DNA from: a virus
Length of the DNA stretch: 64,000 bases
Strand: one strand, 5' to 3'
IMG/VR virus record: IMGVR_UViG_3300025168_000063
Span: 11,536 to 75,535 of that record
Shown: positions 530 to 50,803 of the stretch, piece by piece
How positions within the stretch are numbered: position 1 is the first letter of the stretch
Layout: every line of letters starts with the position of its first letter
The notes under the pieces: generated by a model
Databases searched by the model: none
What the model saw: the letters and a program-made list of their open reading frames with translations, nothing else
Told to the model about the DNA's origin: nothing
Program-made: the position numbers and the translations under genes

Positions 530-893
530 TATTTATATGCAGACAATGAATAGTAACTACGATATAAACGATCCGGATAACAATGATTTAATAGTACATG
601 AATCAATGGATAACGTGTATAGTATAATAACAAAGCAGGATACATATCATACCATCTCAGAGCGTAAAGGTAGAGTATTAATGTTATTCAATCCCTTTGA
701 TAAACGTCCTGATGTGGATGAGCTTATTGACACGCTTATTGAATACTATGCATTACCAGACATTGAGATGTATGAGAGATGTGCTGAGCTTGTAAAGCTA
801 AAGCAATCAGATAAGAAGTTTTCTGTTGAAGACATATTTGAATCTGATATAGAGTTTGATCCTGACTGGGATATTGAAGATAATGACCGCTAG
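513..893 (+). CDS. Hypothetical protein with UVR (UvrB/C)-like helical motif; true start may be 537 or 546
   Basis: EMYERCAELVKLK resembles the UVR motif E-x-Y/F-E-x-A-A-x-x-R-D; acidic tail. An ATATTTAT motif at 529-536 suggests a downstream start. Confidence 0.5.
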   Translation: MKLRFDIYMQTMNSNYDINDPDNNDLIVHESMDNVYSIITKQDTYHTISERKGRVLMLFNPFDKRPDVDELIDTLIEYYALPDIEMYERCAELVKLKQSDKKFSVEDIFESDIEFDPDWDIEDNDR

Positions 894-1085
894 TACTTTT
901 ATTAGCTGCTCTTTTGGACGAGGGTTCGAAACCCTCCACCTCCACTAAACAATTTACATTATGGGGGTGACTGGCTTTGACAGGGAGATAAGGATAAGAG
1001 GAAGGTCAACGCGTAACTGGCGAACAAGTTGAAATGGCGATGGCGGCTTAGGCACCCTGACCCCCCGGCCTAAAAGGGTATGGTC
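884..1085 (+). ncRNA. ssrA: Circularly permuted (two-piece) tmRNA: acceptor piece ~884-944, intervening segment 945-962, coding piece 963-~1085
   Basis: T-arm GAGGG-TTCGAAA-CCCTC (920-936) and CACCTCC-A (937-944) lie upstream of GGGGGTG-ACTGGCTTTGAC (963-). They form a 7-bp acceptor stem with G3-U70 (G965/T941). The tag frame 1019-1051 follows TAACT and encodes GEQVEMAMAA*. The outer ends are approximate. Confidence 0.92.
1019..1051 (+). other. tmRNA proteolysis tag reading frame, (A)GEQVEMAMAA
   Basis: GGC GAA CAA GTT GAA ATG GCG ATG GCG GCT TAG, with a TAACT resume context and C-terminal AA. Confidence 0.88.
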
Positions 1086-1135
1086 GTCAAATAACCTGGT
1101 TGGGTGGAGGTACTAATAAAAAAGGAATGATAGAC

Positions 1136-4825: not shown

Positions 4826-5431
4826 ATGTCAATATATGAAGACAAGGTGGCCCCAATTAAACCGGTAGAAGATAATCAACCAAACGCTAAAGATATATTC
4901 AATGAGATAACATATCAGTTTGATATAACCGATAGTGTTGTATATTTAGTTGGAGAGATAGACGGATTTACGTTATTAGATATGATGACACGTATTCGAA
5001 CAATCCTAAAAAATAGAGCAGATGAAGATGCGCAACCAATTAATATGATTATAAATTCGGAAGGGGGATGTGTATATGAAATGTTAGCAATAGTTGATTA
5101 TATGAATTCACTACCAGTACCTGTAAACACAATCTGTAGAGGTAAAGCCTTTTCAGCAGCTGCATTAATATTAGCTAGTGGGACTGGTACAAGATACGCT
5201 AGCAAGCACTCATCGATAATGTTCCATCAATCATCAGCATGGTTACAAGGAAAACAGTCAGATATAAAAGCTAGCATTCATCATGTATCTGAAATAGATA
5301 AAACGTCTAATGTATTATTGAGTGATAAGACTACACTATCTGCAGAAGAATGGGAGCAAGCTCAACGGACTGACTATTGGTTATCATCTCAACAAGCACT
5401 CGATATAAAAGTTATTGACCAAATAATATAA
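4826..5431 (+). CDS. clpP: ClpP-family serine protease
   Basis: INSEGG, GKAFSAA (catalytic Ser), MFHQ (His) and TDYWLS...IDQI (Asp). Confidence 0.9.
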   Translation: MSIYEDKVAPIKPVEDNQPNAKDIFNEITYQFDITDSVVYLVGEIDGFTLLDMMTRIRTILKNRADEDAQPINMIINSEGGCVYEMLAIVDYMNSLPVPVNTICRGKAFSAAALILASGTGTRYASKHSSIMFHQSSAWLQGKQSDIKASIHHVSEIDKTSNVLLSDKTTLSAEEWEQAQRTDYWLSSQQALDIKVIDQII

Positions 5432-11841: not shown

Positions 11842-12438
11842 ATGCCAAATTACTTGGATCCATTAACAGCAGCAGAACTGCAAGCTAATCAAGAGCAGGC
11901 AGGACTAGCTAATTATGCAGCAGGATTTATTCCTAAGTTCATAGCTCCTATTGATATGGACCCAAATATATCCATAGGATTTACGTTACCATTTGGTACG
12001 ACTCAGACTGGACCTAGCTTTAATGCAAGCTTCACAACAATAGAAGCGGTACGACATAATTTAGCAAATCTACTACTAACTACAAGAGGTGAGCGGTTAT
12101 CAAATCCAAGCTTTGGTTCAAATCTAAAATTTATATTATTCGAACCAAATGACGATAATGTTATAGCACTAATACGAGCAGCAGTAAATGAGGCAGTTAA
12201 AGAGCACATGTCGTATATAGATATATTGGATATAGATGTAGATAGATATGATAACGGAACATCACTATCTGCAACTTTAAATGTAACAATAACATTCTCC
12301 ATAAACGATGGTGCGGATCAAGCGGCTATAGGAATACCTCTAGTGCTAGCAGACTTCGATGGAGGAATGGGAGGAACGTCTCAACAGAATATGGACTTAG
12401 CGGCGAATAGTCTTTCGTCAGCAGGAGGAGGATACTAA
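11842..12438 (+). CDS. Baseplate wedge subunit, gp25-like
   Basis: NLLLTTRGERLSNPSFGSNLKFILFEP is the GPW_gp25 signature. Confidence 0.9.
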   Translation: MPNYLDPLTAAELQANQEQAGLANYAAGFIPKFIAPIDMDPNISIGFTLPFGTTQTGPSFNASFTTIEAVRHNLANLLLTTRGERLSNPSFGSNLKFILFEPNDDNVIALIRAAVNEAVKEHMSYIDILDIDVDRYDNGTSLSATLNVTITFSINDGADQAAIGIPLVLADFDGGMGGTSQQNMDLAANSLSSAGGGY

Positions 12439-14315
12439 TGCCAACAGAAAATGTAAAACGTGAAATAAGATATTTAAGCAAAGACTTTGCTGGGTTTCGT
12501 GATGCACTAGTGCAACACGCCAAGACTTATTTTCCATCTACCTACAACGACTTTAGTGATGCATCATTAGGTATGATGCTAATAGAAATGTCAGCTTACG
12601 TTGGCGACGTTCTATCATACTACATGGACGACCAGATTAAAGAAACAATGCTATCACACGCAACACAACGAGATAATGTAGTTGCAATGGCACAAGCTCT
12701 GGGATATAGACCCAAACCATCAGTACCAGCCATAGCTAAATTAAAACTATACCAATTGATTCCGGCTAAAGATTCTAATGATGAACCAGACTTCAGATAC
12801 GCTTTAAATATAAAAGAAGGCATGACGGTTAAATCATCCGCTGGAAAGACTGAATTTAGAACCAACGACTCAGTTGACTTTGCAGCATCTAGTTCTCAAA
12901 ATCCAACTGAAATATCTGTATACTCATCTGATGATGCTACAAATAAACCAACATATTATTTGGTAAAGAAAGATGTGTTCGCAACATCGGGAAAAGTAAA
13001 GAGTCATTCTGTTACCGTTGGAAATCCATCACAATTCTTTAAAATTAAACTACCTGACAATAATATCATTCGAATAATAAAAGTCGTAGATTCAAACGGA
13101 AACACGTGGTCGGAAGTTCCATATCTAGCCCAAGATGTAAAGTTTGAAGATATAAGAAATGACGCTGCTAATGATAGTCGTCTATCACAATATAGTGATG
13201 AGTCTCCATATCTACTTAAACTAAAACGGATACCAAAACGATTTACAACCAAGATAACATCTAAAAATCTAATGGAGCTGCAATTCGGATCGGGTATATC
13301 AACACAAGCTGATGAAGAATTAATACCAAATCCAGATAATATTGGTATTCAAACTAAGGATGGTAGACAATCATTAGATGCGGGATTCGATCCAAGCAAC
13401 TTTATGTATACTAAAGCATATGGAGAAGCGCCAGCCAACGTCAGCTTAACAGTAACTTATATGATAGGTGATGGATTACAATCCAATGTATCTGCTGGCA
13501 CACTGACAAAGATTCAAACAATATCATATACGGAAAATGCTGTAGCACAGCAAGATCTGTCATCTGCAGTATTGGCTTCGGCAAGGAACTCGGTAGCAGC
13601 CACGAATGAAGACCCAGCTCAAGGAGGTCGTTCATTTGAAACTACAGAAGAAATTAGACAAAATGCTATGGCAGCATATGGATCTCAAATGAGAGCTGTA
13701 ACACGAGAAGATTATATTGGGAGATTGTATTCAATGCCATCACAATATGGTAGTGTAGCCAAAGCATACATAGTACAAGATTTTCAATTGAATGCATATA
13801 CTAACGAAGAAGAATCAAATCCTCTAGCATTATGTCTCTACACTTTGAGCTATAACAAAAGCAAGAAACTAACCACTACTGGTGAAGCAACTAAGGAAAA
13901 TATTAAAACATATTTGTCTCAGTATAGACTAATGACTGATGCAATAAATATAAAAAATGGCCATGTTATTAATATTGGAATTAACTTTGAAGTAATAGTA
14001 ATCCCAAGCTTCAATAGCAACGAAGTTTTATTAAAGTGTATAAACGGGTTAAAGGGAAAATTCTCAACTGATAGAATGCAGTTTAACGAACCAATATTAA
14101 TAAGTGAGATATACTCACAACTATCATCAGTGGAAGGTGTACAATCGGTTACCAATGTTGCACTTGTAAATAAAGTAGGAGGAGATTATTCTTCAAACGC
14201 ATATGATATCGAAGGTGCAACTATAAACAAAGTACTCTACCCAGCTGTCGATCCATCAATATTTGAAATCAAATATCCAGATGTAGATATCGTGGGAAGA
14301 CTAGCAACCTATTAG
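12438..14315 (+). CDS. Baseplate wedge subunit, gp6/baseplate J-like
   Basis: KDF...YNDFSDASLGMMLIEMSAYVGDVLSYY, ALGYRPK, LQFGSG and GGRSFETTEEIR...QMRAVTREDY. Confidence 0.92.
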   Translation: MPTENVKREIRYLSKDFAGFRDALVQHAKTYFPSTYNDFSDASLGMMLIEMSAYVGDVLSYYMDDQIKETMLSHATQRDNVVAMAQALGYRPKPSVPAIAKLKLYQLIPAKDSNDEPDFRYALNIKEGMTVKSSAGKTEFRTNDSVDFAASSSQNPTEISVYSSDDATNKPTYYLVKKDVFATSGKVKSHSVTVGNPSQFFKIKLPDNNIIRIIKVVDSNGNTWSEVPYLAQDVKFEDIRNDAANDSRLSQYSDESPYLLKLKRIPKRFTTKITSKNLMELQFGSGISTQADEELIPNPDNIGIQTKDGRQSLDAGFDPSNFMYTKAYGEAPANVSLTVTYMIGDGLQSNVSAGTLTKIQTISYTENAVAQQDLSSAVLASARNSVAATNEDPAQGGRSFETTEEIRQNAMAAYGSQMRAVTREDYIGRLYSMPSQYGSVAKAYIVQDFQLNAYTNEEESNPLALCLYTLSYNKSKKLTTTGEATKENIKTYLSQYRLMTDAINIKNGHVINIGINFEVIVIPSFNSNEVLLKCINGLKGKFSTDRMQFNEPILISEIYSQLSSVEGVQSVTNVALVNKVGGDYSSNAYDIEGATINKVLYPAVDPSIFEIKYPDVDIVGRLATY

Positions 14316-41163: not shown

Positions 41164-42244
41164 CATGGCAGATATTTTTATATATGATGGACATATAAGT
41201 TCGAGTGATGGAATCAAACTACAAGTTTCCGAGTCCAACGCACTTTTCATATCCCATTCAGAAGGACTAGGATTTGATTTAGGTGGCTATGGCCCAAAGG
41301 TTGGAATTGGTACAATAACGCCTAGTGTTCCTTTAGACGTTGAAGGAGGAATTCTTGGAGCCCACATTGCTAGATTTACCAGAGTACAAGGATTAGGAGG
41401 TACCAACGCTCAAGTAGCAATAAATGCAAACTCAAGCGATCCTCAAATACAGTTTGCCCGCGGAACGGGTGCTTATGCTATAGGCTTGAATGATGGTGAT
41501 AATTCTTTTCAAATAATTGATGGAACTACAATATCTGGTGGTACTGCAAGATTTACAATAAACTCATCGGGTAATGTTGGTATAGGAACAACCAATCCTC
41601 AATCATTGCTAACCGTGAGTGGATCAGATGGAGGAAATTTCACAACTTTCTTAAGATTTGGAAAAGATAATTATACTGCTGGTTCAGGACCTGCCATGTT
41701 CTTTAAGACAAGTCCCAACACAACTTTGGATCGATATGGTGTAAAACTAGGAGCGATAAGAAAAGGTAGTGGAACTGCTGAATTTGTAATAGAACAAGAA
41801 TTGGATAATGGTTCTGGTGGTGCAGGCGGATTAAGTGAAACGCTCAGAATTACTAGTTTTGGAAATGTTGGTATAGGAACATCTACAGCAACTGCAAAGT
41901 TAGAAGTAATTGGAGACATAAGTGGATCTGGAGCTGCATCTTTTGAAACAAATCTAAAAGTAGATGGAAAAGTAGCAATAGCAGCTCCCAACAACACCTC
42001 AACTGCAGATTTAATTATTGGTGATGGAACCACCAATGTAAATGTAACTCTGTTTGGAAATGAAGATTCCGCAACGCAAGCATCCTTATGGTTTGGAGAC
42101 GTTGCTTCAGCAGCATCGCCTCACTACGGTGGATCGGGTTTTGTATATGATGGAAACGATAATCATCTTACAATCCGAAAAGGTGGTTCTACAAATAATT
42201 TATTTACAATAGACGCAGATAATGGAAACGTTGGTATAGGAAAA
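38050..42244 (+). repeat. Dispersed in-frame direct repeats GGTAACGTTGGTATAGGAACAAC (GNVGIGTT)
   Basis: Exact 23-mers at 38050, 38500 and 38785; variants at 40042, 41570, 41861 and 42224, spanning two genes. Confidence 0.88.
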
Positions 42245-45200
42245 GTATCAGGTGATCCTACTGCTAAATTAGAAGTAGTTGGAGATATGATAGTAGGAGG
42301 TATTGAAACAGGAAATATAATAAGTTCTCCTCAATACTTCAGTGGATTTGCAGGTTCAGGATTTAGAATACAATCAGGTTCAACTGGTGTGAAAGCGGAA
42401 TTTGATAATCTATCAGTTCGTGGATCATTTCAAGTATATGAATTAGTTGCAAATCAAGTAAGAGCAACAAACGGATCTTTATGGATATCTAATGCAGGAA
42501 AAATAATATCATCATCTCAATTAGATGGATTTGGAGGAGCATCTTGGCCGGTATCTTTTTCAATGTTTTTTGAAACTGGAAGTGATACATTAGATCATGG
42601 ATTTGTGAGAGGAGACGTGATCCGATCTCAAAAATTTGACGGTTCAAACGTTTTTCAATCAAACATGATAGTTTGTTCTAGAAGTGATAGTGGATCGATA
42701 ATAGCAGCCTTGGAAGATCAATCAACACCACCATCCGCAAGCATGGATTTTGTGAGAATTGGTCATACATTCGATGAAGATAGAGATGCAGCAATATACT
42801 TGACAGCTGAAGATACAAATGCACCATATATAGATGTTATAGACGGAGTAGATAGTCATACTGCATTTGCTCAATCAGATAAAATAAAAGTTAGATTAGG
42901 AAATCTAGCAGGAATAACAGATGTTAATGTAGGAGGAGCTTTAAGTGGATATGGATTGTATTCAGAAAATGTTTATTTAACTGGAACGATAAAAGCGGTA
43001 GCAGGAGAGATTGGAGGTTTTGGACTTAACGCAACTTCTATCTCAAGTTCAAATGATAATTTAATTTTAAGATCCACAGGACAAATAACAGCATCCGATT
43101 TCTTATTTGATGGATCGGGAACAATAGACGGAGATGTAACAATTGGCAGCAACGTTACTATAGCAGGGCAACTGTCAGTAGGAGCACTTCCAAATCTTCC
43201 ATCGGATGAAAGTTTGGTAGGATATTGGAATTTTGACCAAGGAACAGGAAGCCTTATCAGAGATCAAGTCGGTAGTCTTGATTCAAATGGAAACCGATAT
43301 GATATCCCAACTGTCGATCCTGATGGAACTCCTGATAGTTTAGGTGCATTTACATCTGAGTCAATAAGTGGGATTGCATGGAAACGCGACTCCGCTGGTA
43401 GTGCTCAATACGCTATCAATGTTACATCATCTTTCTCATCATCATTTGGAAATGCATGCTCCGGATCTATATCCTTTTGGTTAAATACTGACTTATCTAC
43501 TAATGGTGATGACCAGAGTAAGATATTTGGTGAAAACGGTGAAAACGCAGGATTTAACAAAGAAGATTTCTTCTTCATTGATCAACAACCAGGAGGCCAA
43601 ATCAGAATGTTAGCTTATTCTGGTAGTGGTGGTACTGGAGGTTTTGGAACCGGAAATGAATACGTAAGTGCACAGGGCGCTGGAACTTCACTTACTATTC
43701 TGCAGGATCTTGGTACTAATGCAGGTTCTGGAGGAGGAAGAGGAATCTCATCTAGTTTAGCTGCAGCTAATAGTGGAAGTAAAGGTTGGGCACATTGGGT
43801 AATTAATTGGGGATCTGGTTCTAACTTTGTTGGGAACTCTGACCATGCATTTAGAATTTATATAAATGGGGAGAAAGTGTCTCATAGGATTATGACTGGT
43901 TCAGATGCACGAATAAACTTCCGTCCATACAACCAAAGGCTGGCATGGATAGGCCAAAAAAATGATGACGCAACCATAGACGAAATCCGGATATATAATA
44001 GTGTTCTAACACCCAATGAAGTTAGAGCGTTATACCTATCTCCAGCTGGAATGAATACGGGAACAACTGTAACCGGTGATCAAATACAAACTGGCCAGAT
44101 TAGATCTAACAATTGGAATAATGATACTGATGGATCAATGATTGATCTTACAAACGGTAGAATGCATTTAGGTGGATTGGAAGCAAACGCAAAATTACAC
44201 TTTGATGGAACAAATTTATCAGTAGCAGGAACAGTATCAGCATCCGCTGGTAATATAGGTGGTTGGAAAATTGAATCAGATAAATTTGTAGATGGTTCAG
44301 ATACAATTCGTTTAGAACCAAATGGAACTTACGTGATATCATCGTCTGAATTCCAAGTGGATCAAGCAGGATCAATAACAGCAAGTTCTGCAAACTTCTC
44401 GGGTAATGTAACATCATCACAAGCATTGATTGGTGGGTGGACAGTTGATTCAGGATCCATATCATCTAACAATGCAAAACTAGATGCGGCAGGAAAATTA
44501 TCACTGAGCTCTTCTAAATTTACTGGCACTGGAATACAACTGGAAAACAACTCAGGAGCTCCAAGAGCATATATTGGTGATGGAAATTTAACTGGTAGTT
44601 TTATACAATACGATGAAACAAACGGAGTAAGATTAGGACCAGCAGTTACTTTAGCATTTGGTAGTACAATGCTGCCAGGCGAAAATATATTGAATGATTT
44701 TTCCAATCTATCAATAACAGATCCATGGGTAGCATCAGCAACACCAAATTATTATCCAATTGGTGAAGCAACAGATAATGAAGTATCAACATCAGTCGGA
44801 CCACATGGACTCAATGAAAAAGTTTGGGTAGCATCACCAGATTCAGATACAGATGGTGGTGGATGGATGTCAGATTGGTTTGAAGTAGATCACTCACAAA
44901 CATATCAATTTTCTGTGTATGTAAAATTCCCAGCTGAATCTAGGATGACTGGTTCATGGTACATGGGAGCACGTTCTGGAGATGAGAATATATTTATAGG
45001 TGCATCTGGTTCACAAAACCCAGCTACAAATCCTGGCCAAAATTCAGCGTATCACTGGCCAAAATATTATTCAGTTCCAACTTTTGGCCCACACGGTCAC
45101 CACTACGACCATGCCCATTACACATCTACAGGTCAAGCTTTAGCAGCAGGAGCTGCTTTAGGAGCGATGCAAGATTATCAAGCTGATAATAGTGGCATAA

Positions 45201-48200
45201 CTAACTGGAATCCATACTTCATGCATCTTACTGGAGATGGAACAAACTCCAAAGGACACTTCACACAATCCATTGCAGAAGGAGGTTTAGGAGGACAACA
45301 AGATCGTTGGTATTTATGTGTAGGATATATACATGGTTCTTCATCTTTATATAATAATTCTGTAGGTGATATAGGTGGTATGTATGATACTGTAACTGGA
45401 AGAAAGGTTAGAGATGGAAATGACTTCATCTGGGGTTCAGGATCCCAATGGCTTTCCGTACGAAGTTTCCACAATCATGATGCATACGGTGCAGATGACG
45501 ATACACCATACACACTTTGGGCAAAACCAGCAGTTAAAAAAGTCACACAAGCAACAACAGACATAAGTTCATTTATTGATATAGGTTCAGCAATTGCAAC
45601 CGGTCAATATTCTGGATCAAGTACATTCATAACAAGCACATCAATCTTCTCACCAAACATAGCTGGTACAGATGGATATATATCCAATAAACTTACAGTA
45701 GGTACTGCAGGTTCGGGTGTGACATTGGATGGTACAAATAAAAAATTATTCCTTGGAACGGGAGATTGGAAAGGTAGTAATACTCCGTTCATAGCTAGAG
45801 ATTCTGGATCCGATTTCTTAACAAACGGATCATTGACAAATGGAACAACTGGTTGGACAATAGGTGGTAGTCATTTAACTACTACAAATGCCCCCGAAGT
45901 AACAAATTTAATTACAAATGGATATGGTTATCAAGCAATTACTAATTTAGTAGTTGGACTTAGATACGATCTGAATTGGATCATTCCATCCTCCACAGGA
46001 ACTTGGTCATTCTACGTATCAGACGATACAACATATAATACTGGAGTAAATGGAGTCACAACTGCTGATACCAGCAATACTGGTTTTAACGCAGGACAGA
46101 AATCATTCACAGCCCATCAAACAACTGCATATATTTTTGCATTTAATATAGGAGGTGCGGGTACGGTGGGAACTTGGCCACAGCTGTCTGTAACCCAAGA
46201 AGGTGTATTCAGTCTAGGTGATAAGTTTGCTTGGGATGGATCAACATTACAAATAACTGGATCTTTATCTTTAACAGCAGGAGATGCATCAGCAAGTATA
46301 TCTCAACTGAACGTCGACTCAGCAAGCTTTTCAACCTTAATAGCAGATCATTCATCATCAGCTGCATCATCAATAACTCAAAACGCAGATAGTATAACAG
46401 CAGCAGTTTCAGTGAACGATGGTCAAGCATCAAGTATATCACAACTTCAAATATCAACTGGAGCAATAGAATTAGAAGTTAATTCACTTAATGAAGCATC
46501 TGGAGCATTATCTGGATCAGTTGTAGAATTAAACTTAACTACTGCATCAATCAATCTATCAGTTGCATCTATTCAAGGACAAGTAACTCAATCACAATTC
46601 AACAACTTGGATTGGTCGCAAGGATATTCAGGATGGAATTGGCATGGTTCTACTGGTAATTACCAAGGCCTCAATTCAGTTGGAGAAAATCTAGATGGGT
46701 GGACAACTGGATCAATGTCACACCTTAACGGTATAGCTTATACATCTGGTTCTCTTGCAGGAGCAAAAATGTTTGAAGTTGTGTCTGGATCAAATTTATC
46801 TGGTTCTAGATTTGGTAGAGCATTAGAAGCTAGGTCTTCAGAAAACGGTAATCAGACATGGGTATATGGCTCAGAAGCAGTACCAATAGATACTGACAGA
46901 GTTTATCAAGGACGTGTTCGAGTGAGAATGGCTCATGTTGGAGATAACGGTGAAACTTACTCAGGATTCTACGCAGGATTTGCATGTTTGGATCAGTTTG
47001 GTAATCAGATATCAGAATCACCAGGCACACACAGATACTTTACCGTAGGAGGAAAAAATATATTACCTTCAGATCCATACACATGGAATGAATACAGTGG
47101 ATCTATTTCAAGAACAACAACTGAAGCAGGAGGAGCAGGATCTGAAGATTTAAGTTTGATTGGAGACTTCATAGGAAACAATGGTAGAGCATCGGGTACA
47201 CCAACTACTCATAACGTATTCAAAACTGGAACCAAATTTGTCAGACCAATGATGATTTTCAACTACAGCAATAAAGACACTGCAATGCAAGTGGATGGAT
47301 TCACAATTGAAGATGTGACTCCAACAGTACAATCTAGTGCAAGTATATCAATCACTGACACTCAAGTTCAAACAAACGTTTCAAACATATCAGGAAACTC
47401 GTCAACCATAACACAAAATGCAGATGGAATAACCTTAGCAGCTGCCACGGCAAGTGATGTGGCAAGTCTAGCAATCAATCCACAAGGTGTACAAATATCT
47501 GGATCTAATCTGGAATTTAGTGGATCCTCATTCTACTTTGGAATAGGAGCAGCTCAGTCAGGATCGGGAGCATTCATATCAGGTTCAAATGGTAATATAG
47601 AAATATCATCATCCAATTTCCACATACAAGCATCTGGTAGTGCAATCTTCAGTGGTTCAATATCAGCAAGTGATGGTGATATTGGAGGGTGGTCATTACA
47701 ACCTGGAACATTCTCATCTAACAATATAACACTCGATTCAGCGAATGAAATAATAACTCTTGGTAGTGGTAATGAAATAACATTAGATGGTGATGGTAGT
47801 GGCCACGTAGCAGGTGGAAATGTAGCTTGGACATCCACTGGAGATTTAACAATAACAGATGCATCCATTGAAGTAAATAGTCTTCCAAGCTTACCATCAT
47901 CTGATAAAACAGTTAGACATTATGCATTTGATGCTGGACATGGAACAACGGTCCTAGACCAAGGTGGAACTGCACAAAATGGAACATTAACCGTTTCTAC
48001 TGGCACACCAAACGGACTACCGACTTGGATATCAGGTTCTGGAATATCAGGATCGGTATCTGGTAAAGCACTAAGCTTCAATGCTATTGCAGTACCTCAT
48101 TCTGGTTCAGGTCAACATATTGTCATACCAACATTAGCTATTGATTCTAACGGTGCTGGAAATGCATTTGCAATTTCATTCTGGGCCAGAAAAAGCTCTA

Positions 48201-50803
48201 TAACAGATGATTTCTCCGTGGGCTCGTATAACTACCAAAGAATATTCAGAGGAGGTAGTAGTAATAATTTCATTGACCTCGGTATAGCATCTGGTAAGTT
48301 TAGATGGAATCACGAAGGAACAGATAATACTGGAGGTAATCATTCTGTCTTTAATTCAAGTGTAACAGCTGACACAGAATGGCACCACTATGTACTAGTA
48401 TCCAAATATGAACTGAACGAATTATATATTGATGGAGAACTGGAAGGTACGGATGCATGGTCAGCAACTGGAAATTCAGCTCAAAACTATGGAGCAGGTT
48501 TTAGTTTCACAGGAATTGGACAAGGTGGTGATTTTGCTTCCAGTCAATATTCTCCAAATTATGGAGATGGTTGGAATGGAGCATTAGATGAAGTAAGAAT
48601 TTACACTGGAAGTTTATCGCCCAACGAAATAAAAGGATTGTATCTCAACCCTGCAGGAGATAAAGGTACTAAAATTACTGGTGATCAAATAACCACTGGA
48701 AAGATAAAATCGAATAATTGGAACGATAGCAACGCAGGTTCACTGATTGATTTAGATGAAGGAACTGTACATCTAGGAGGTTCTGGATCTAATGCAAATT
48801 TCTATTTCAATGAAGCAGGCGATCTTTCAATAACTGGATCTATCACAGCTGAATCCTCAACTATTACTGGAAACATTTATGCAGATAATATAGTTACCAA
48901 TAGTGGATCAATTGGTGGATGGACAATTTCAGCAGATAGTATTGAATCGGGAAGTTCTAATACTGCGGGTGGTGATAGTATTAGGTTATGGGGATCTCCA
49001 ACTGTAGTTGGTACCAACGCATATCAATCAACTCAGACAAAACTACAAGGATTATCAATACAATGGCATGAATCTAATAATGCAGGACATATTGTATTTG
49101 GTGATGTACTGACAGATGCAAATGGAGCTCCAGAAGATCCTAACGGTACTCCAGCTTATAATGGTTGGAAAGGAATTCAAGCGCAGAAATATAACGAGGA
49201 TAATCCATACTTCCAATTAGCCTTTAACACGGATGGTGCTTTTGCAACTAAAAATATAATTGCAGGGTGGGAATTCACTGAGCAAAAAATAATAAATTAC
49301 AATGGTACTGAACCATTGTTAGAATTAAAAAATACAACAACAGCAGGCGACTTTATAATCTCAGCATCCAACTTCCAAGTAGACACAGCAGGAGCATTCA
49401 CAGCATCAGCTGGTCTCATTGAAGGTGATGTAAGAATGCGTGGTAAGTTAGAAGTATTAGATCCAACTGGAGTACAAACACATACATTATATGCAAGAGG
49501 TACTGATTTTTCTAACATAAGTACTCATCCAGCTAGAGTACAAGGTGGAAACAACATCAGTGAAACTTCATTCACGATAGGACAGAATTTGGTAATTCTG
49601 TCTGAAAGTGTTGCGGGTGTTCTAGAGAAAAGACATAAGTCAGCATATGACACCCATAACTCAATTGCTAACGGTAATACACTGGCAGGAATCTTGATGG
49701 GTACTTCAACTTATTCTGATGTGAATGGAAATGCAACAACATTAGAAGGTACTGACGTGGTATTGATTGTTTCTCACGATGCATCAAAGATATCAACAAA
49801 TCTACATGCTGCATTAAAATCTGTAGGAGGTACAAATCCACATGCAAGAGATTCAAGCCAAAACGTTCAAGCAATACCAACTACTGCTACAAGCAGAACG
49901 CCCTACGCACTTATTGGACAACAAGGTTTAGGACATGGAAATGGTTTTGAAAAAGTTGGTAGATATGATGAAGCAGACCATCCAAGCGGTTCAGCCGAAA
50001 TAACTGCATTTTTCAAAAATGGACAAATTAGTGCAAACACTTCTACTGGAACTGAAATTGCAGGTAGTAAAATAAAGACTGGTGAAATCCAATCCAACAA
50101 TTGGACTGGATTAGCAGGTGCAAAAGGAACTTTACTTGATTTGGATAATGGTAAGTTAATCATGCGAACTAATACTGAAGATTATCTAAACTTTAATGCA
50201 GCAGCAGGTACAGCCAATATTGCAGGTTGGACTTTCAACCAACAGAAATTTTATTCAAATTCATCAAATGAAGTTCGTGGAATTAATATCAATAAAAATG
50301 AGGGTATTAGAGGAAGAGCAGCAAATGAAGCATATGCAATCTCTGGATCAAATACATTTACTAATCTAAGCTTCGGAATCCAATTGTTTGAAAATCCAGC
50401 AGAAACAGTAGCACAAGCTAAATCAGGTTGTTTCCCAATCGGAACAAGAATATTATTATCAAATGGTACTTGGAAAGCTATACAAAATATTGAAATTGGC
50501 GACCTTGTAAGAACAAAAGAAGGAACCAATGTACCAGTATTAGATTCATTTATTTGGAATGTAAATAAAGAAATGACTATGTATACAAATAAAGAATTAA
50601 CAGTAACGGATACTCACCCATTATGGATTAATGGTAAATGGCAAACTGCAGATAAATTAGGATGGGATAACGAATTGACGTATGTTGATAATTTATATTA
50701 TCTACAAACAGAAAACAATTATATAGTAGAAGGAACCCCTGCTACGGGTATTGTATTACCAACAGCACTGGGTGTAAGTATAAAAAATAAAGGAGAAGTG
50801 TAA
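41165..50803 (+). CDS. Giant modular tail fibre/adhesin (3212 aa): GNVGIG repeats, two LamG domains, CBM-like modules, ILEI-like lectin, C-terminal Hint domain
   Basis: LVGYWNFD...IDEIRIYN; VRHYAFD...LDEVRIY; RTPYALIG; GCFPIGTRI...IEIGDLV...TDTHP. Confidence 0.8.
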   Translation: MADIFIYDGHISSSDGIKLQVSESNALFISHSEGLGFDLGGYGPKVGIGTITPSVPLDVEGGILGAHIARFTRVQGLGGTNAQVAINANSSDPQIQFARGTGAYAIGLNDGDNSFQIIDGTTISGGTARFTINSSGNVGIGTTNPQSLLTVSGSDGGNFTTFLRFGKDNYTAGSGPAMFFKTSPNTTLDRYGVKLGAIRKGSGTAEFVIEQELDNGSGGAGGLSETLRITSFGNVGIGTSTATAKLEVIGDISGSGAASFETNLKVDGKVAIAAPNNTSTADLIIGDGTTNVNVTLFGNEDSATQASLWFGDVASAASPHYGGSGFVYDGNDNHLTIRKGGSTNNLFTIDADNGNVGIGKVSGDPTAKLEVVGDMIVGGIETGNIISSPQYFSGFAGSGFRIQSGSTGVKAEFDNLSVRGSFQVYELVANQVRATNGSLWISNAGKIISSSQLDGFGGASWPVSFSMFFETGSDTLDHGFVRGDVIRSQKFDGSNVFQSNMIVCSRSDSGSIIAALEDQSTPPSASMDFVRIGHTFDEDRDAAIYLTAEDTNAPYIDVIDGVDSHTAFAQSDKIKVRLGNLAGITDVNVGGALSGYGLYSENVYLTGTIKAVAGEIGGFGLNATSISSSNDNLILRSTGQITASDFLFDGSGTIDGDVTIGSNVTIAGQLSVGALPNLPSDESLVGYWNFDQGTGSLIRDQVGSLDSNGNRYDIPTVDPDGTPDSLGAFTSESISGIAWKRDSAGSAQYAINVTSSFSSSFGNACSGSISFWLNTDLSTNGDDQSKIFGENGENAGFNKEDFFFIDQQPGGQIRMLAYSGSGGTGGFGTGNEYVSAQGAGTSLTILQDLGTNAGSGGGRGISSSLAAANSGSKGWAHWVINWGSGSNFVGNSDHAFRIYINGEKVSHRIMTGSDARINFRPYNQRLAWIGQKNDDATIDEIRIYNSVLTPNEVRALYLSPAGMNTGTTVTGDQIQTGQIRSNNWNNDTDGSMIDLTNGRMHLGGLEANAKLHFDGTNLSVAGTVSASAGNIGGWKIESDKFVDGSDTIRLEPNGTYVISSSEFQVDQAGSITASSANFSGNVTSSQALIGGWTVDSGSISSNNAKLDAAGKLSLSSSKFTGTGIQLENNSGAPRAYIGDGNLTGSFIQYDETNGVRLGPAVTLAFGSTMLPGENILNDFSNLSITDPWVASATPNYYPIGEATDNEVSTSVGPHGLNEKVWVASPDSDTDGGGWMSDWFEVDHSQTYQFSVYVKFPAESRMTGSWYMGARSGDENIFIGASGSQNPATNPGQNSAYHWPKYYSVPTFGPHGHHYDHAHYTSTGQALAAGAALGAMQDYQADNSGITNWNPYFMHLTGDGTNSKGHFTQSIAEGGLGGQQDRWYLCVGYIHGSSSLYNNSVGDIGGMYDTVTGRKVRDGNDFIWGSGSQWLSVRSFHNHDAYGADDDTPYTLWAKPAVKKVTQATTDISSFIDIGSAIATGQYSGSSTFITSTSIFSPNIAGTDGYISNKLTVGTAGSGVTLDGTNKKLFLGTGDWKGSNTPFIARDSGSDFLTNGSLTNGTTGWTIGGSHLTTTNAPEVTNLITNGYGYQAITNLVVGLRYDLNWIIPSSTGTWSFYVSDDTTYNTGVNGVTTADTSNTGFNAGQKSFTAHQTTAYIFAFNIGGAGTVGTWPQLSVTQEGVFSLGDKFAWDGSTLQITGSLSLTAGDASASISQLNVDSASFSTLIADHSSSAASSITQNADSITAAVSVNDGQASSISQLQISTGAIELEVNSLNEASGALSGSVVELNLTTASINLSVASIQGQVTQSQFNNLDWSQGYSGWNWHGSTGNYQGLNSVGENLDGWTTGSMSHLNGIAYTSGSLAGAKMFEVVSGSNLSGSRFGRALEARSSENGNQTWVYGSEAVPIDTDRVYQGRVRVRMAHVGDNGETYSGFYAGFACLDQFGNQISESPGTHRYFTVGGKNILPSDPYTWNEYSGSISRTTTEAGGAGSEDLSLIGDFIGNNGRASGTPTTHNVFKTGTKFVRPMMIFNYSNKDTAMQVDGFTIEDVTPTVQSSASISITDTQVQTNVSNISGNSSTITQNADGITLAAATASDVASLAINPQGVQISGSNLEFSGSSFYFGIGAAQSGSGAFISGSNGNIEISSSNFHIQASGSAIFSGSISASDGDIGGWSLQPGTFSSNNITLDSANEIITLGSGNEITLDGDGSGHVAGGNVAWTSTGDLTITDASIEVNSLPSLPSSDKTVRHYAFDAGHGTTVLDQGGTAQNGTLTVSTGTPNGLPTWISGSGISGSVSGKALSFNAIAVPHSGSGQHIVIPTLAIDSNGAGNAFAISFWARKSSITDDFSVGSYNYQRIFRGGSSNNFIDLGIASGKFRWNHEGTDNTGGNHSVFNSSVTADTEWHHYVLVSKYELNELYIDGELEGTDAWSATGNSAQNYGAGFSFTGIGQGGDFASSQYSPNYGDGWNGALDEVRIYTGSLSPNEIKGLYLNPAGDKGTKITGDQITTGKIKSNNWNDSNAGSLIDLDEGTVHLGGSGSNANFYFNEAGDLSITGSITAESSTITGNIYADNIVTNSGSIGGWTISADSIESGSSNTAGGDSIRLWGSPTVVGTNAYQSTQTKLQGLSIQWHESNNAGHIVFGDVLTDANGAPEDPNGTPAYNGWKGIQAQKYNEDNPYFQLAFNTDGAFATKNIIAGWEFTEQKIINYNGTEPLLELKNTTTAGDFIISASNFQVDTAGAFTASAGLIEGDVRMRGKLEVLDPTGVQTHTLYARGTDFSNISTHPARVQGGNNISETSFTIGQNLVILSESVAGVLEKRHKSAYDTHNSIANGNTLAGILMGTSTYSDVNGNATTLEGTDVVLIVSHDASKISTNLHAALKSVGGTNPHARDSSQNVQAIPTTATSRTPYALIGQQGLGHGNGFEKVGRYDEADHPSGSAEITAFFKNGQISANTSTGTEIAGSKIKTGEIQSNNWTGLAGAKGTLLDLDNGKLIMRTNTEDYLNFNAAAGTANIAGWTFNQQKFYSNSSNEVRGININKNEGIRGRAANEAYAISGSNTFTNLSFGIQLFENPAETVAQAKSGCFPIGTRILLSNGTWKAIQNIEIGDLVRTKEGTNVPVLDSFIWNVNKEMTMYTNKELTVTDTHPLWINGKWQTADKLGWDNELTYVDNLYYLQTENNYIVEGTPATGIVLPTALGVSIKNKGEV

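Follow-up and report, generated by a model that had tools for sequence, protein, structure and literature searches.

Gene permutation has a classic example in two-piece transfer-messenger RNA (tmRNA), which is believed to have evolved on three occasions among bacteria and on one in mitochondria. In the bacterial types, which Rfam models as alpha_tmRNA (RF01849) and beta_tmRNA (RF01850) as well as cyano_tmRNA (RF01851), the pieces are joined by the acceptor stem and helix P2, pseudoknots 3 and 4 have been lost, and the coding piece typically has pseudoknots 1 and 2 around the tag (review PMC3985003). Phage two-piece tmRNAs were treated by Buchholz et al. 2022 (PMC9004378), who described that of OM43 phage Melnitz and found 53 ARAGORN-permuted tmRNA structures among ~18,000 phage genomes, with Caulobacter phiCbK-like phages, pelagiphages, cyanophages, Cellulophaga phage phi4:1 and ~13 crAss-like phages listed in their Table S1. 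Williams and colleagues (PMC11915505, Table S2) listed 48 permuted genes from assemblies of Bacteroidota, each given an alpha, beta or cyano type, while the paper on Maribacter phage Panino (PMC11590407) discusses tmRNA as a possible integration site only and leaves permutation unmentioned. In the literature searched we found no paper naming a Bacteroidota-type permuted lineage or one without pseudoknot 1. Here we describe a permuted ssrA gene of this kind near the start of a 64,000-nucleotide (nt) stretch of viral DNA (hereafter the window), bases 11536-75535 of the linear 75.5-kb IMG/VR record IMGVR_UViG_3300025168_000063, for which CheckV gives a completeness of ~45%.

We consider it highly probable that the gene is a genuine and functional-looking circularly permuted ssrA of a marine myovirus with a Bacteroidota host, acting as a two-piece tmRNA by the pathway proposed below. 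As a phage two-piece tmRNA it is ordinary; it is noteworthy as a member of a compact, widespread, Bacteroidota-type family that does without pseudoknot 1. An earlier note on this DNA, made from its letters, had already proposed a phage-encoded circularly permuted tmRNA, a claim borne out below, on the premise that known phage tmRNAs are one-piece; that premise falls to the dozens of ARAGORN-permuted phages listed in PMC9004378.

Order of the two halves

Over the whole window ARAGORN calls one gene, of its permuted type (tmRNA*), at 852-1142 with the tag GEQVEMAMAA*. The sole above-threshold Rfam match is to the merged model tmRNA_permuted (RF04321; 62.9 bits against a gathering score of 47, positions 885-1051), and the standard tmRNA model (RF00023) gives truncated matches to the 3′ half only, at 37.3 and 24.1 bits. 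The RF04321 score by itself is no proof of permutation, because 5′ halves of standard tmRNAs reach similar values: in the 151 Pseudomonadota genomes sampled, matches of 47-65 bits are such 5′ halves, and in this range the merged model yields false ‘permuted’ calls. Six individual loci from six genomes, all with standard one-piece genes, were noted as having 5′ halves that pass the gathering score. The proof of permutation is instead the order of the parts: the acceptor 5′ strand follows the T-arm and acceptor 3′ strand at a distance of 18 nt (Table 1), and no tRNA-like 3′ half was found downstream of the 5′ half, where the next open reading frame (ORF) begins at 1136. The earlier note had placed the T-arm, both acceptor strands, an 18-nt AU-rich spacer and GGGGGTG exactly where we find them; the alanyl G3-U70 pair that it described is present and invariant in 42 of 42 homologues, and its tag frame reads GGC GAA ... 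GCU UAG. Only its 3′ limit, 1085, was too short, as the conserved pseudoknot extends to 1097.

That the locus might owe its layout to faulty assembly, or be an ordinary one-piece tmRNA wrongly called permuted, is extremely improbable. Suspicion could arise from the bit range shared with standard 5′ halves, and from the marine DNA run in which the region, shared by many related strains, is a hotspot of contig breaks. Against this, independent unitigs of that same run span 885-959 and 930-1043 with zero mismatches and so bridge both halves, the same layout recurs in 64 IMG/VR contigs from many metagenomes as well as in complete genomes of isolates, and the tightly flanking protein genes enclose no downstream T-arm or acceptor 3′ half. 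The locus is not a misjoin, which was one of the findings that the earlier note had named as fatal to its proposal.

Structure, tag and proposed function

The structure was tested on two alignments, one of 12 close relatives and one of 42 distinct homologues, with shuffles and slid controls. For the close relatives, 96.3% of cells are paired over 40 pairs, and 13 pairs (35 cells) are changed on both sides; 0 of 500 shuffles reach the observed value and the best slid control gives 4 pairs. For the 42 homologues, 97.0% of cells are paired over 35 pairs and 17 pairs (162 cells) are changed on both sides, again with 0 of 500 shuffles reaching the observed value and with 27 cells in the best slid control. 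The compensatory changes on which the earlier note had made its claim depend are thus present, and every helix covaries except for the invariant G3:U70. Across the larger alignment, acceptor pair 5:68 is CG in 19 sequences, UA in 18 and GC in 5, the outer two T-stem pairs run through three and four pair types, and pair 1018/1027 of the resume hairpin is UA in 30, CG in 6 and AU in 4. In two relatives a Gln-to-His codon change on the 3′ strand of the resume hairpin is offset by a change on its 5′ strand.

Table 1. Parts of the permuted tmRNA gene, in window coordinates
Feature	Positions	Strand	Details and basis
Acceptor piece	885-944	+	sequence, RF04321 alignment, pair counts
T-arm	920-936	+	strands 920-924 / 932-936, loop UUCGAAA 925-931
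Acceptor 3′ strand and discriminator	937-943, A944	+	sequence
Spacer (intervening segment)	945-962	+	18 nt, 15/18 A or U; alignments
Coding piece, 5′ part	963-1007	+	sequence, pair counts
Acceptor 5′ strand GGGGGUG	963-969	+	7 pairs including G965:U941 (G3:U70)
D-loop analogue	970-981	+	
Helix P2, outer	885-888 / 1004-1007	+	pair counts
Helix P2, middle	896-903 / 993-1000	+	RNAalifold
Helix P2, inner	909-914 / 982-987	+	pair counts
Resume hairpin	1014-1031	+	5-bp stem 1014-1018 / 1027-1031, resume codon GGC 1019-1021 in 8-nt loop; RNAalifold
Tag reading frame GEQVEMAMAA and stop UAG	1019-1051	+	ARAGORN
P5-like hairpin	1042-1057	+	stem 1042-1047 / 1052-1057, stop codon in loop; 3 pairs changed on both sides
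Single H-type pseudoknot 3′ of tag	1065-1097	+	S1 1066-1069 / 1083-1086, S2 1075-1079 / 1094-1097; by eye
Conserved 3′ tail GGUGGAGG	1103-1110	+	perfect 8-bp complement of 933-940 (T-stem and acceptor 3′ strands)

The tRNA-like domain combines a 7-bp acceptor stem that includes G3:U70 with an A as discriminator and a T-arm whose loop is canonical. CUA follows A944, so that CCA is not encoded, and the first 9 nt of the acceptor piece overlap the end of the upstream ORF (stop TAG 891-893). The spacer varies freely in sequence and length, and among close relatives it is 16-20 nt long. A local 7-bp hairpin (889-895/900-906) was considered as a substitute for the middle part of P2; it is 100% paired but near-invariant, with 1 covarying pair as against 3-5; P2 middle was preferred because RNAalifold chose it and it shows more covariation. 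The hairpin, which is mutually exclusive with P2 middle, may be an alternative fold of the precursor.

The coding piece departs from the typical architecture, in which pseudoknot 1 lies upstream and pseudoknot 2 downstream of the tag. Because P2 and the resume codon are separated by just 11 nt (1008-1018), the predicted fold leaves no room for pseudoknot 1, and a hairpin appears to present the resume codon instead, whereas the bacterial two-piece type, with the same permutation, has pseudoknot 1. Throughout the phage family the resume codon lies close to G1, at 55-58 nt versus 94-102 nt in standard Bacteroidota tmRNAs. One pseudoknot is present downstream of the tag. Seen by eye, its S2 covaries among relatives (GGGC/GCCC, GGGAU/AUCCC, GAAGU/ACUUC, AGGU/ACCU, AGGAC/GUUCU) and its S1 has a compensated change (ACGGC/GUCGU to ACGGA/UCCGU). 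The GGUGGAGG tail that follows occurs in 8 of the 12 close relatives, the window included, and the other 4 have an intrinsic terminator directly after the pseudoknot; the tail might cover the tRNA-like domain while the RNA is still a precursor, or serve as a Shine-Dalgarno-like element. A terminator scan of the window locus found none, and a sigma-70 promoter scan returned 5 promoter-like sites against 4.8 expected, with Bacteroidota promoters outside its coverage.

The tag is an internal frame with resume and stop codons and a hydrophobic A-x-A-A degron end. Tags of the relatives read G[EAKT]QVE[MLY]AMAA, or have 36-37 residues and still end in AMAA. In ten short-tag genes the final three Ala codons differ at third positions only, and because this variation is synonymous it points to selection acting on the tag peptide. 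The sub-group with 36-37-residue tags comprises eight listed loci and others; examples such as GTQIKSVKAG...YAMAA and GKQVELAKVN...ALMAA are far above the usual tmRNA tag length, with the AMAA or LMAA end kept.

By analogy with the known two-piece pathway (review PMC3985003), a single precursor, probably made when transcription runs on from the upstream gene, the stop codon of which falls within the RNA, would be cleaved by host RNase P before G963. This cut and the trimming of the 3′ end to A944 would remove the spacer, and a host enzyme would add CCA. In this the phage gene would be like the ssrA of its host, as CCA is likewise not encoded in most tmRNA genes of Bacteroidota; no CCA-adding enzyme (PF01743) was found in the phage record (~45% complete). 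The resulting acceptor piece (~60 nt) and coding piece (~135-150 nt) would be held together by the 7-bp acceptor stem and ~18 bp of P2, and host alanyl-tRNA synthetase (AlaRS) would charge the RNA with alanine through G3:U70 and A73. With host SmpB and EF-Tu it would enter stalled ribosomes, resume at GGC 1019 and append (A)GEQVEMAMAA, the AMAA end of which would mimic the signal for degradation used by flavobacterial and cytophagal hosts. The benefit to the phage would likely be that ribosomes are kept free and truncated proteins recycled while host mRNA is degraded.

Several points weigh against this account. SmpB (PF01668) was not found in the 75.5-kb record (~45% complete) or in 14 related contigs, mostly fragments, and because no phage SmpB was found the proposed function rests on that of the host. 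The best protein match of the element is a phage reported on a cyanobacterium, and the assignment of the host is indirect. Loss of pseudoknot 1 might impair frame setting, although E. coli tolerates a hairpin in its place. The gene is represented in one marine metatranscriptome library by a contig of 155 nt that is 99% identical over 876-1021, but this contig, the only near-identical one from an RNA library, bridges the spacer and may thus stem from precursor RNA or from DNA carry-over, depth and ends not being readable from contigs. In the same library no contig covered the flanks 600-870 and 1032-1400, and the very deep RNA contigs of 31-72 nt on 913-945 are, by their loose ends, host standard tmRNAs.

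The missing pseudoknot and SmpB would also suit a tRNA-like RNA that acts as a decoy or regulator, binding SmpB, AlaRS or ribosomes without tagging, or one that is a decaying relic. The tail GGUGGAGG could mask the acceptor/T region of such an RNA, and there is a precedent in the tmRNA of mycobacteriophage DS6A, which has no coding sequence (PMC11915505). We nonetheless judge this very unlikely: the tag frame is intact in all homologues and the resume context conserved, the Ala codons vary synonymously, the AMAA end is kept even in the 36-37-codon versions, and the structure covaries across 42 sequences, all of which argue for a tag-encoding tmRNA.

Bacteroidota affinity, phage relatives and origin

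The class affinity of the gene was assessed with an exact scan for its 5′ 21-mer (963-983, one position free) over 185,579 species genomes. The 21-mer was found in 79 of them, nearly all Bacteroidota, including Muribaculaceae, Prevotella, Dyadobacter, Telluribacter, Chitinophagia and, from the flavobacteria, Wenyingzhuangia and Ochrovirga; beyond these it matched one metagenome-assembled genome (MAG) each of Kaiserbacteria, Cloacimonadota and ‘Berkiella’. None of the 79 is titled as an alpha- or betaproteobacterium or cyanobacterium. In a subset of these genomes ARAGORN called 15 of 19 loci as standard one-piece, with tags mostly like GENNYALAA, GESTYAMAA and GEESFAMAA; GE..ALAA or GE..AMAA tags prevail in the 17 standard genes that it displays. 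The earlier note's ‘Bacteroidota-style’ D-loop and GE-initiated tag are well founded, given the GE..ALAA and GE..AMAA tags that accompany the 21-mer. The tRNA-like 3′ half, which played no part in choosing the 21-mer genomes, has a mean identity of 88% (maximum 97%) to standard Bacteroidota genes, compared with 74% to cyano-phage and 66% to alpha genes. After the discriminator, CCA is missing in 48 of 56 Bacteroidota genes and in all 12 members of the family that were compared; 26 of 30 alpha genes do encode it. Because of this Bacteroidota-type tRNA-like domain and tag, the host is most likely a member of the Bacteroidota (Flavobacteriia).

Standard Bacteroidota tmRNAs (RF00023), as in Wenyingzhuangia, Ochrovirga, Dyadobacter and Telluribacter, share with the window gene the identical 5′ 21-mer, tags of the form GE..[YF]AMAA and a CCA that is usually unencoded, and their final codons AUG GCU GCC UAA are those of two relatives in the phage family (L011 and L020). 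They differ from it in being one-piece, ~370-400 nt long and equipped with four pseudoknots; neither the one-piece order nor the set of pseudoknots 1-4 is found in the window gene. Two further contigs of 27-35 kb, one binned in a ‘Candidatus Berkiella’ MAG (L089) and one in a Bacteroidota MAG (L102), carry near-identical permuted tmRNAs of Bacteroidota type with the tags GKSVEMYPTQRKAA and GKTVDMYPTQRKAA, respectively. Both contigs are probably phage or prophage, and the ‘Berkiella’ contig is likely mis-binned.

None of the three permuted-class models recognises the window gene. Alpha_tmRNA gives a local match only (30.5 bits against a cut-off of 50), cyano_tmRNA matches the tRNA-like domain only (47.1 against 70), and beta_tmRNA reaches 46.5 against 84, the beta class being judged by this Rfam score alone as the comparison set holds no true beta sequences. 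The window T-loop, UUCGAAA, differs from the GGC(G/A)(G/A)(U/A)A (GGCGGUA type) of 29 of the 30 bacterial alpha genes, which score 113-162 bits on RF04321; three alpha genes that ARAGORN called in short loci have ANDN tags.

Melnitz, HTVC008M, Mosig, phiCbK-like phages, S-SSM7 and S-CRM01 resemble the window element in being large aquatic phages with a permuted ssrA, which is presumed to mature alike and to work with the host's SmpB. Of these reference phages HTVC008M, S-SSM7, S-CRM01 and phiCbK were scanned. The first three exceed the cut-off of the model for the class of their host lineage, HTVC008M with 83.8 bits (alpha), S-SSM7 with 109.4 (cyano) and S-CRM01 with 74.3 (cyano); the fourth, phiCbK, is recognised by the merged model only. 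The window gene, in contrast to the first three, passes none of the three class models. HTVC008M and phiCbK differ from the window gene in their non-canonical T-loops (UGCAAUA and UGCGAAU) and encoded CCA, and the ARAGORN tags of all four start with AN, AK or VAAN, versus GE in the window. In phiCbK (NC_019405.1; positions 506-992 of our locus L125, minus strand) a GOLLD RNA (RF02032, 165 bits against 150) is situated amid tRNA genes, upstream of the permuted tmRNA by ~0.5 kb.

Closer relatives are found in phages of Bacteroidota. The same permuted type was confirmed in Maribacter phage Panino (PP540027.1, 27557-27889) and Chryseobacterium phage MA9V-3 (PV245944.1, 22766-23124), both annotated just as ‘tmRNA’, and in the crAss-like Suoliviridae cr114_1, cr60_1 and cr272_1 (RefSeq) we confirmed the gene order and the short distance to the UAACUGGC resume context. 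Panino, MA9V-3 and the crAss-like phages share with the window gene the order of T-arm and acceptor 3′ strand, spacer and GGGG 5′ strand, G-initial tags and a 5′ domain of GACNGG..UUUGACAG type. Panino, the crAss-like phages and one further relative (L024) have a G1-to-resume distance of 56-60 nt and the UAACUGGY context, as in the window family; Panino and MA9V-3 score 62-65 bits on RF04321, like the window gene; and cr114_1 and cr60_1 have the ACGGC...GUCGUAAAA pseudoknot in common with it. The spacers of Panino, MA9V-3 and the crAss-like phages, of 39 to ~170 nt and thus longer, and their tags (GKVMNV..., GNVIDINK..., GNFYVTDYTRIAA) differ from those of the window gene. In cr114_1 (NC_055897.1; positions 642-714 of our locus L172) the ~170-nt spacer contains a complete tRNA-His gene, and a tRNA-like acceptor/T-arm minihelix follows the tmRNA pseudoknot. 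On these comparisons the family appears to be widespread and phage-borne, reaching from marine flavobacterial phages through Panino and MA9V-3 to crAss-like Suoliviridae.

These signatures favour descent from a Bacteroidota-type ssrA, and we lean towards an origin independent of the known permuted classes. The earlier note had proposed such an independent permutation in a phage lineage, which is plausible though unproven: it is supported by the failure of the class models and by a T-loop unlike that of alpha, but phylogenetic tests cannot reject a clade with alpha or cyano-phage forms. In a maximum-likelihood tree of the tRNA-like domain, over the 66 columns that are all that aligns across classes, bacterial alpha genes are separate (93/93) and the rest is a polytomy. 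On the same columns, approximately unbiased (AU) tests do not reject the family grouped with alpha (p 0.71), the family with cyano-phage (p 0.59) or all permuted forms together (p 0.15). All Bacteroidota-type permuted forms as one clade are rejected (p 0.011), a group that was chosen after the tree had been seen and in a domain that may track the host.

The groupings left standing by the AU tests would accommodate a history with no new permutation, in which a member of the alpha, beta or cyano permuted class was transferred into Bacteroidota phages and remodelled by convergence or recombination. Cyano-type phage tmRNAs likewise have a canonical T-loop, the GACAG motif and no encoded CCA, the merged permuted model does recognise the window gene, and the need to fit host AlaRS, SmpB and RNase P, as well as proteases, makes convergence expected. 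We think such a transfer unlikely. All three class models score below their cut-offs for the window gene whereas HTVC008M, S-SSM7 and S-CRM01 pass those of their hosts, the alpha T-loop GGCGGUA is absent, the 21-mer was found in no genome titled as alphaproteobacterial, betaproteobacterial or cyanobacterial, and the start and end of the tag, the resume context and the missing pseudoknot 1 are all different. On the preferred reading, independent permutation of a Bacteroidota-type ssrA, a fuller scenario can be drawn, which we hold to be evenly balanced between true and false: a fourth origin of two-piece tmRNA, arising inside phages and then spreading from marine myoviruses to gut crAss-like phages, would have produced the most stripped-down tag-encoding tmRNA known, with a hairpin in place of pseudoknot 1.

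A further origin confined to phages would, if true, provide an extra independent natural experiment in gene permutation, and frame setting without pseudoknot 1 would offer a minimal natural template for studying the placement of the resume codon. Both Rfam and the tmRNA database assign such sequences to an alpha, beta or cyano type, and a dedicated model would improve both phage annotation and host prediction. The basic picture, in which large phages carry ribosome-rescue RNAs, is unchanged.

Genomic setting

The tmRNA locus sits between ORFs at 513-893 and 1136-1582. Genes of the window are tightly packed on the plus strand; among their products are baseplate proteins resembling gp25 and gp6, tail-fibre proteins and a primase. 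The nearest matches of the baseplate wedge protein (12438-14315) are ‘Microcystis’ phage Mel-JY01 (47%), Flavobacterium phage immuto (42%; 160 kb) and a 484-kb uncultured phage, and because of these closest matches the source element, marine and uncultured, is taken to be a large myovirus. Immuto and Mel-JY01, the nearest cultured relatives by this protein, carry no tmRNA.

Downstream of the tmRNA, an Hsp20-family small heat-shock protein (PF00011, 42 bits) is encoded 0.5 kb 3′ at 1630-2061 and a ClpP-family protease (PF00574, 114 bits) 3.8 kb 3′ at 4826-5431, the best PHROG of the latter being ‘head maturation protease’. The two genes are possibly a proteostasis cluster; alternatively, the protease may be no more than that of the prohead. 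Further along, an ORF of 3212 codons (41165-50803) is preceded by ORFs of 1055, 1159 and 1477 codons; it and its long upstream neighbours presumably encode tail-fibre or virion proteins.

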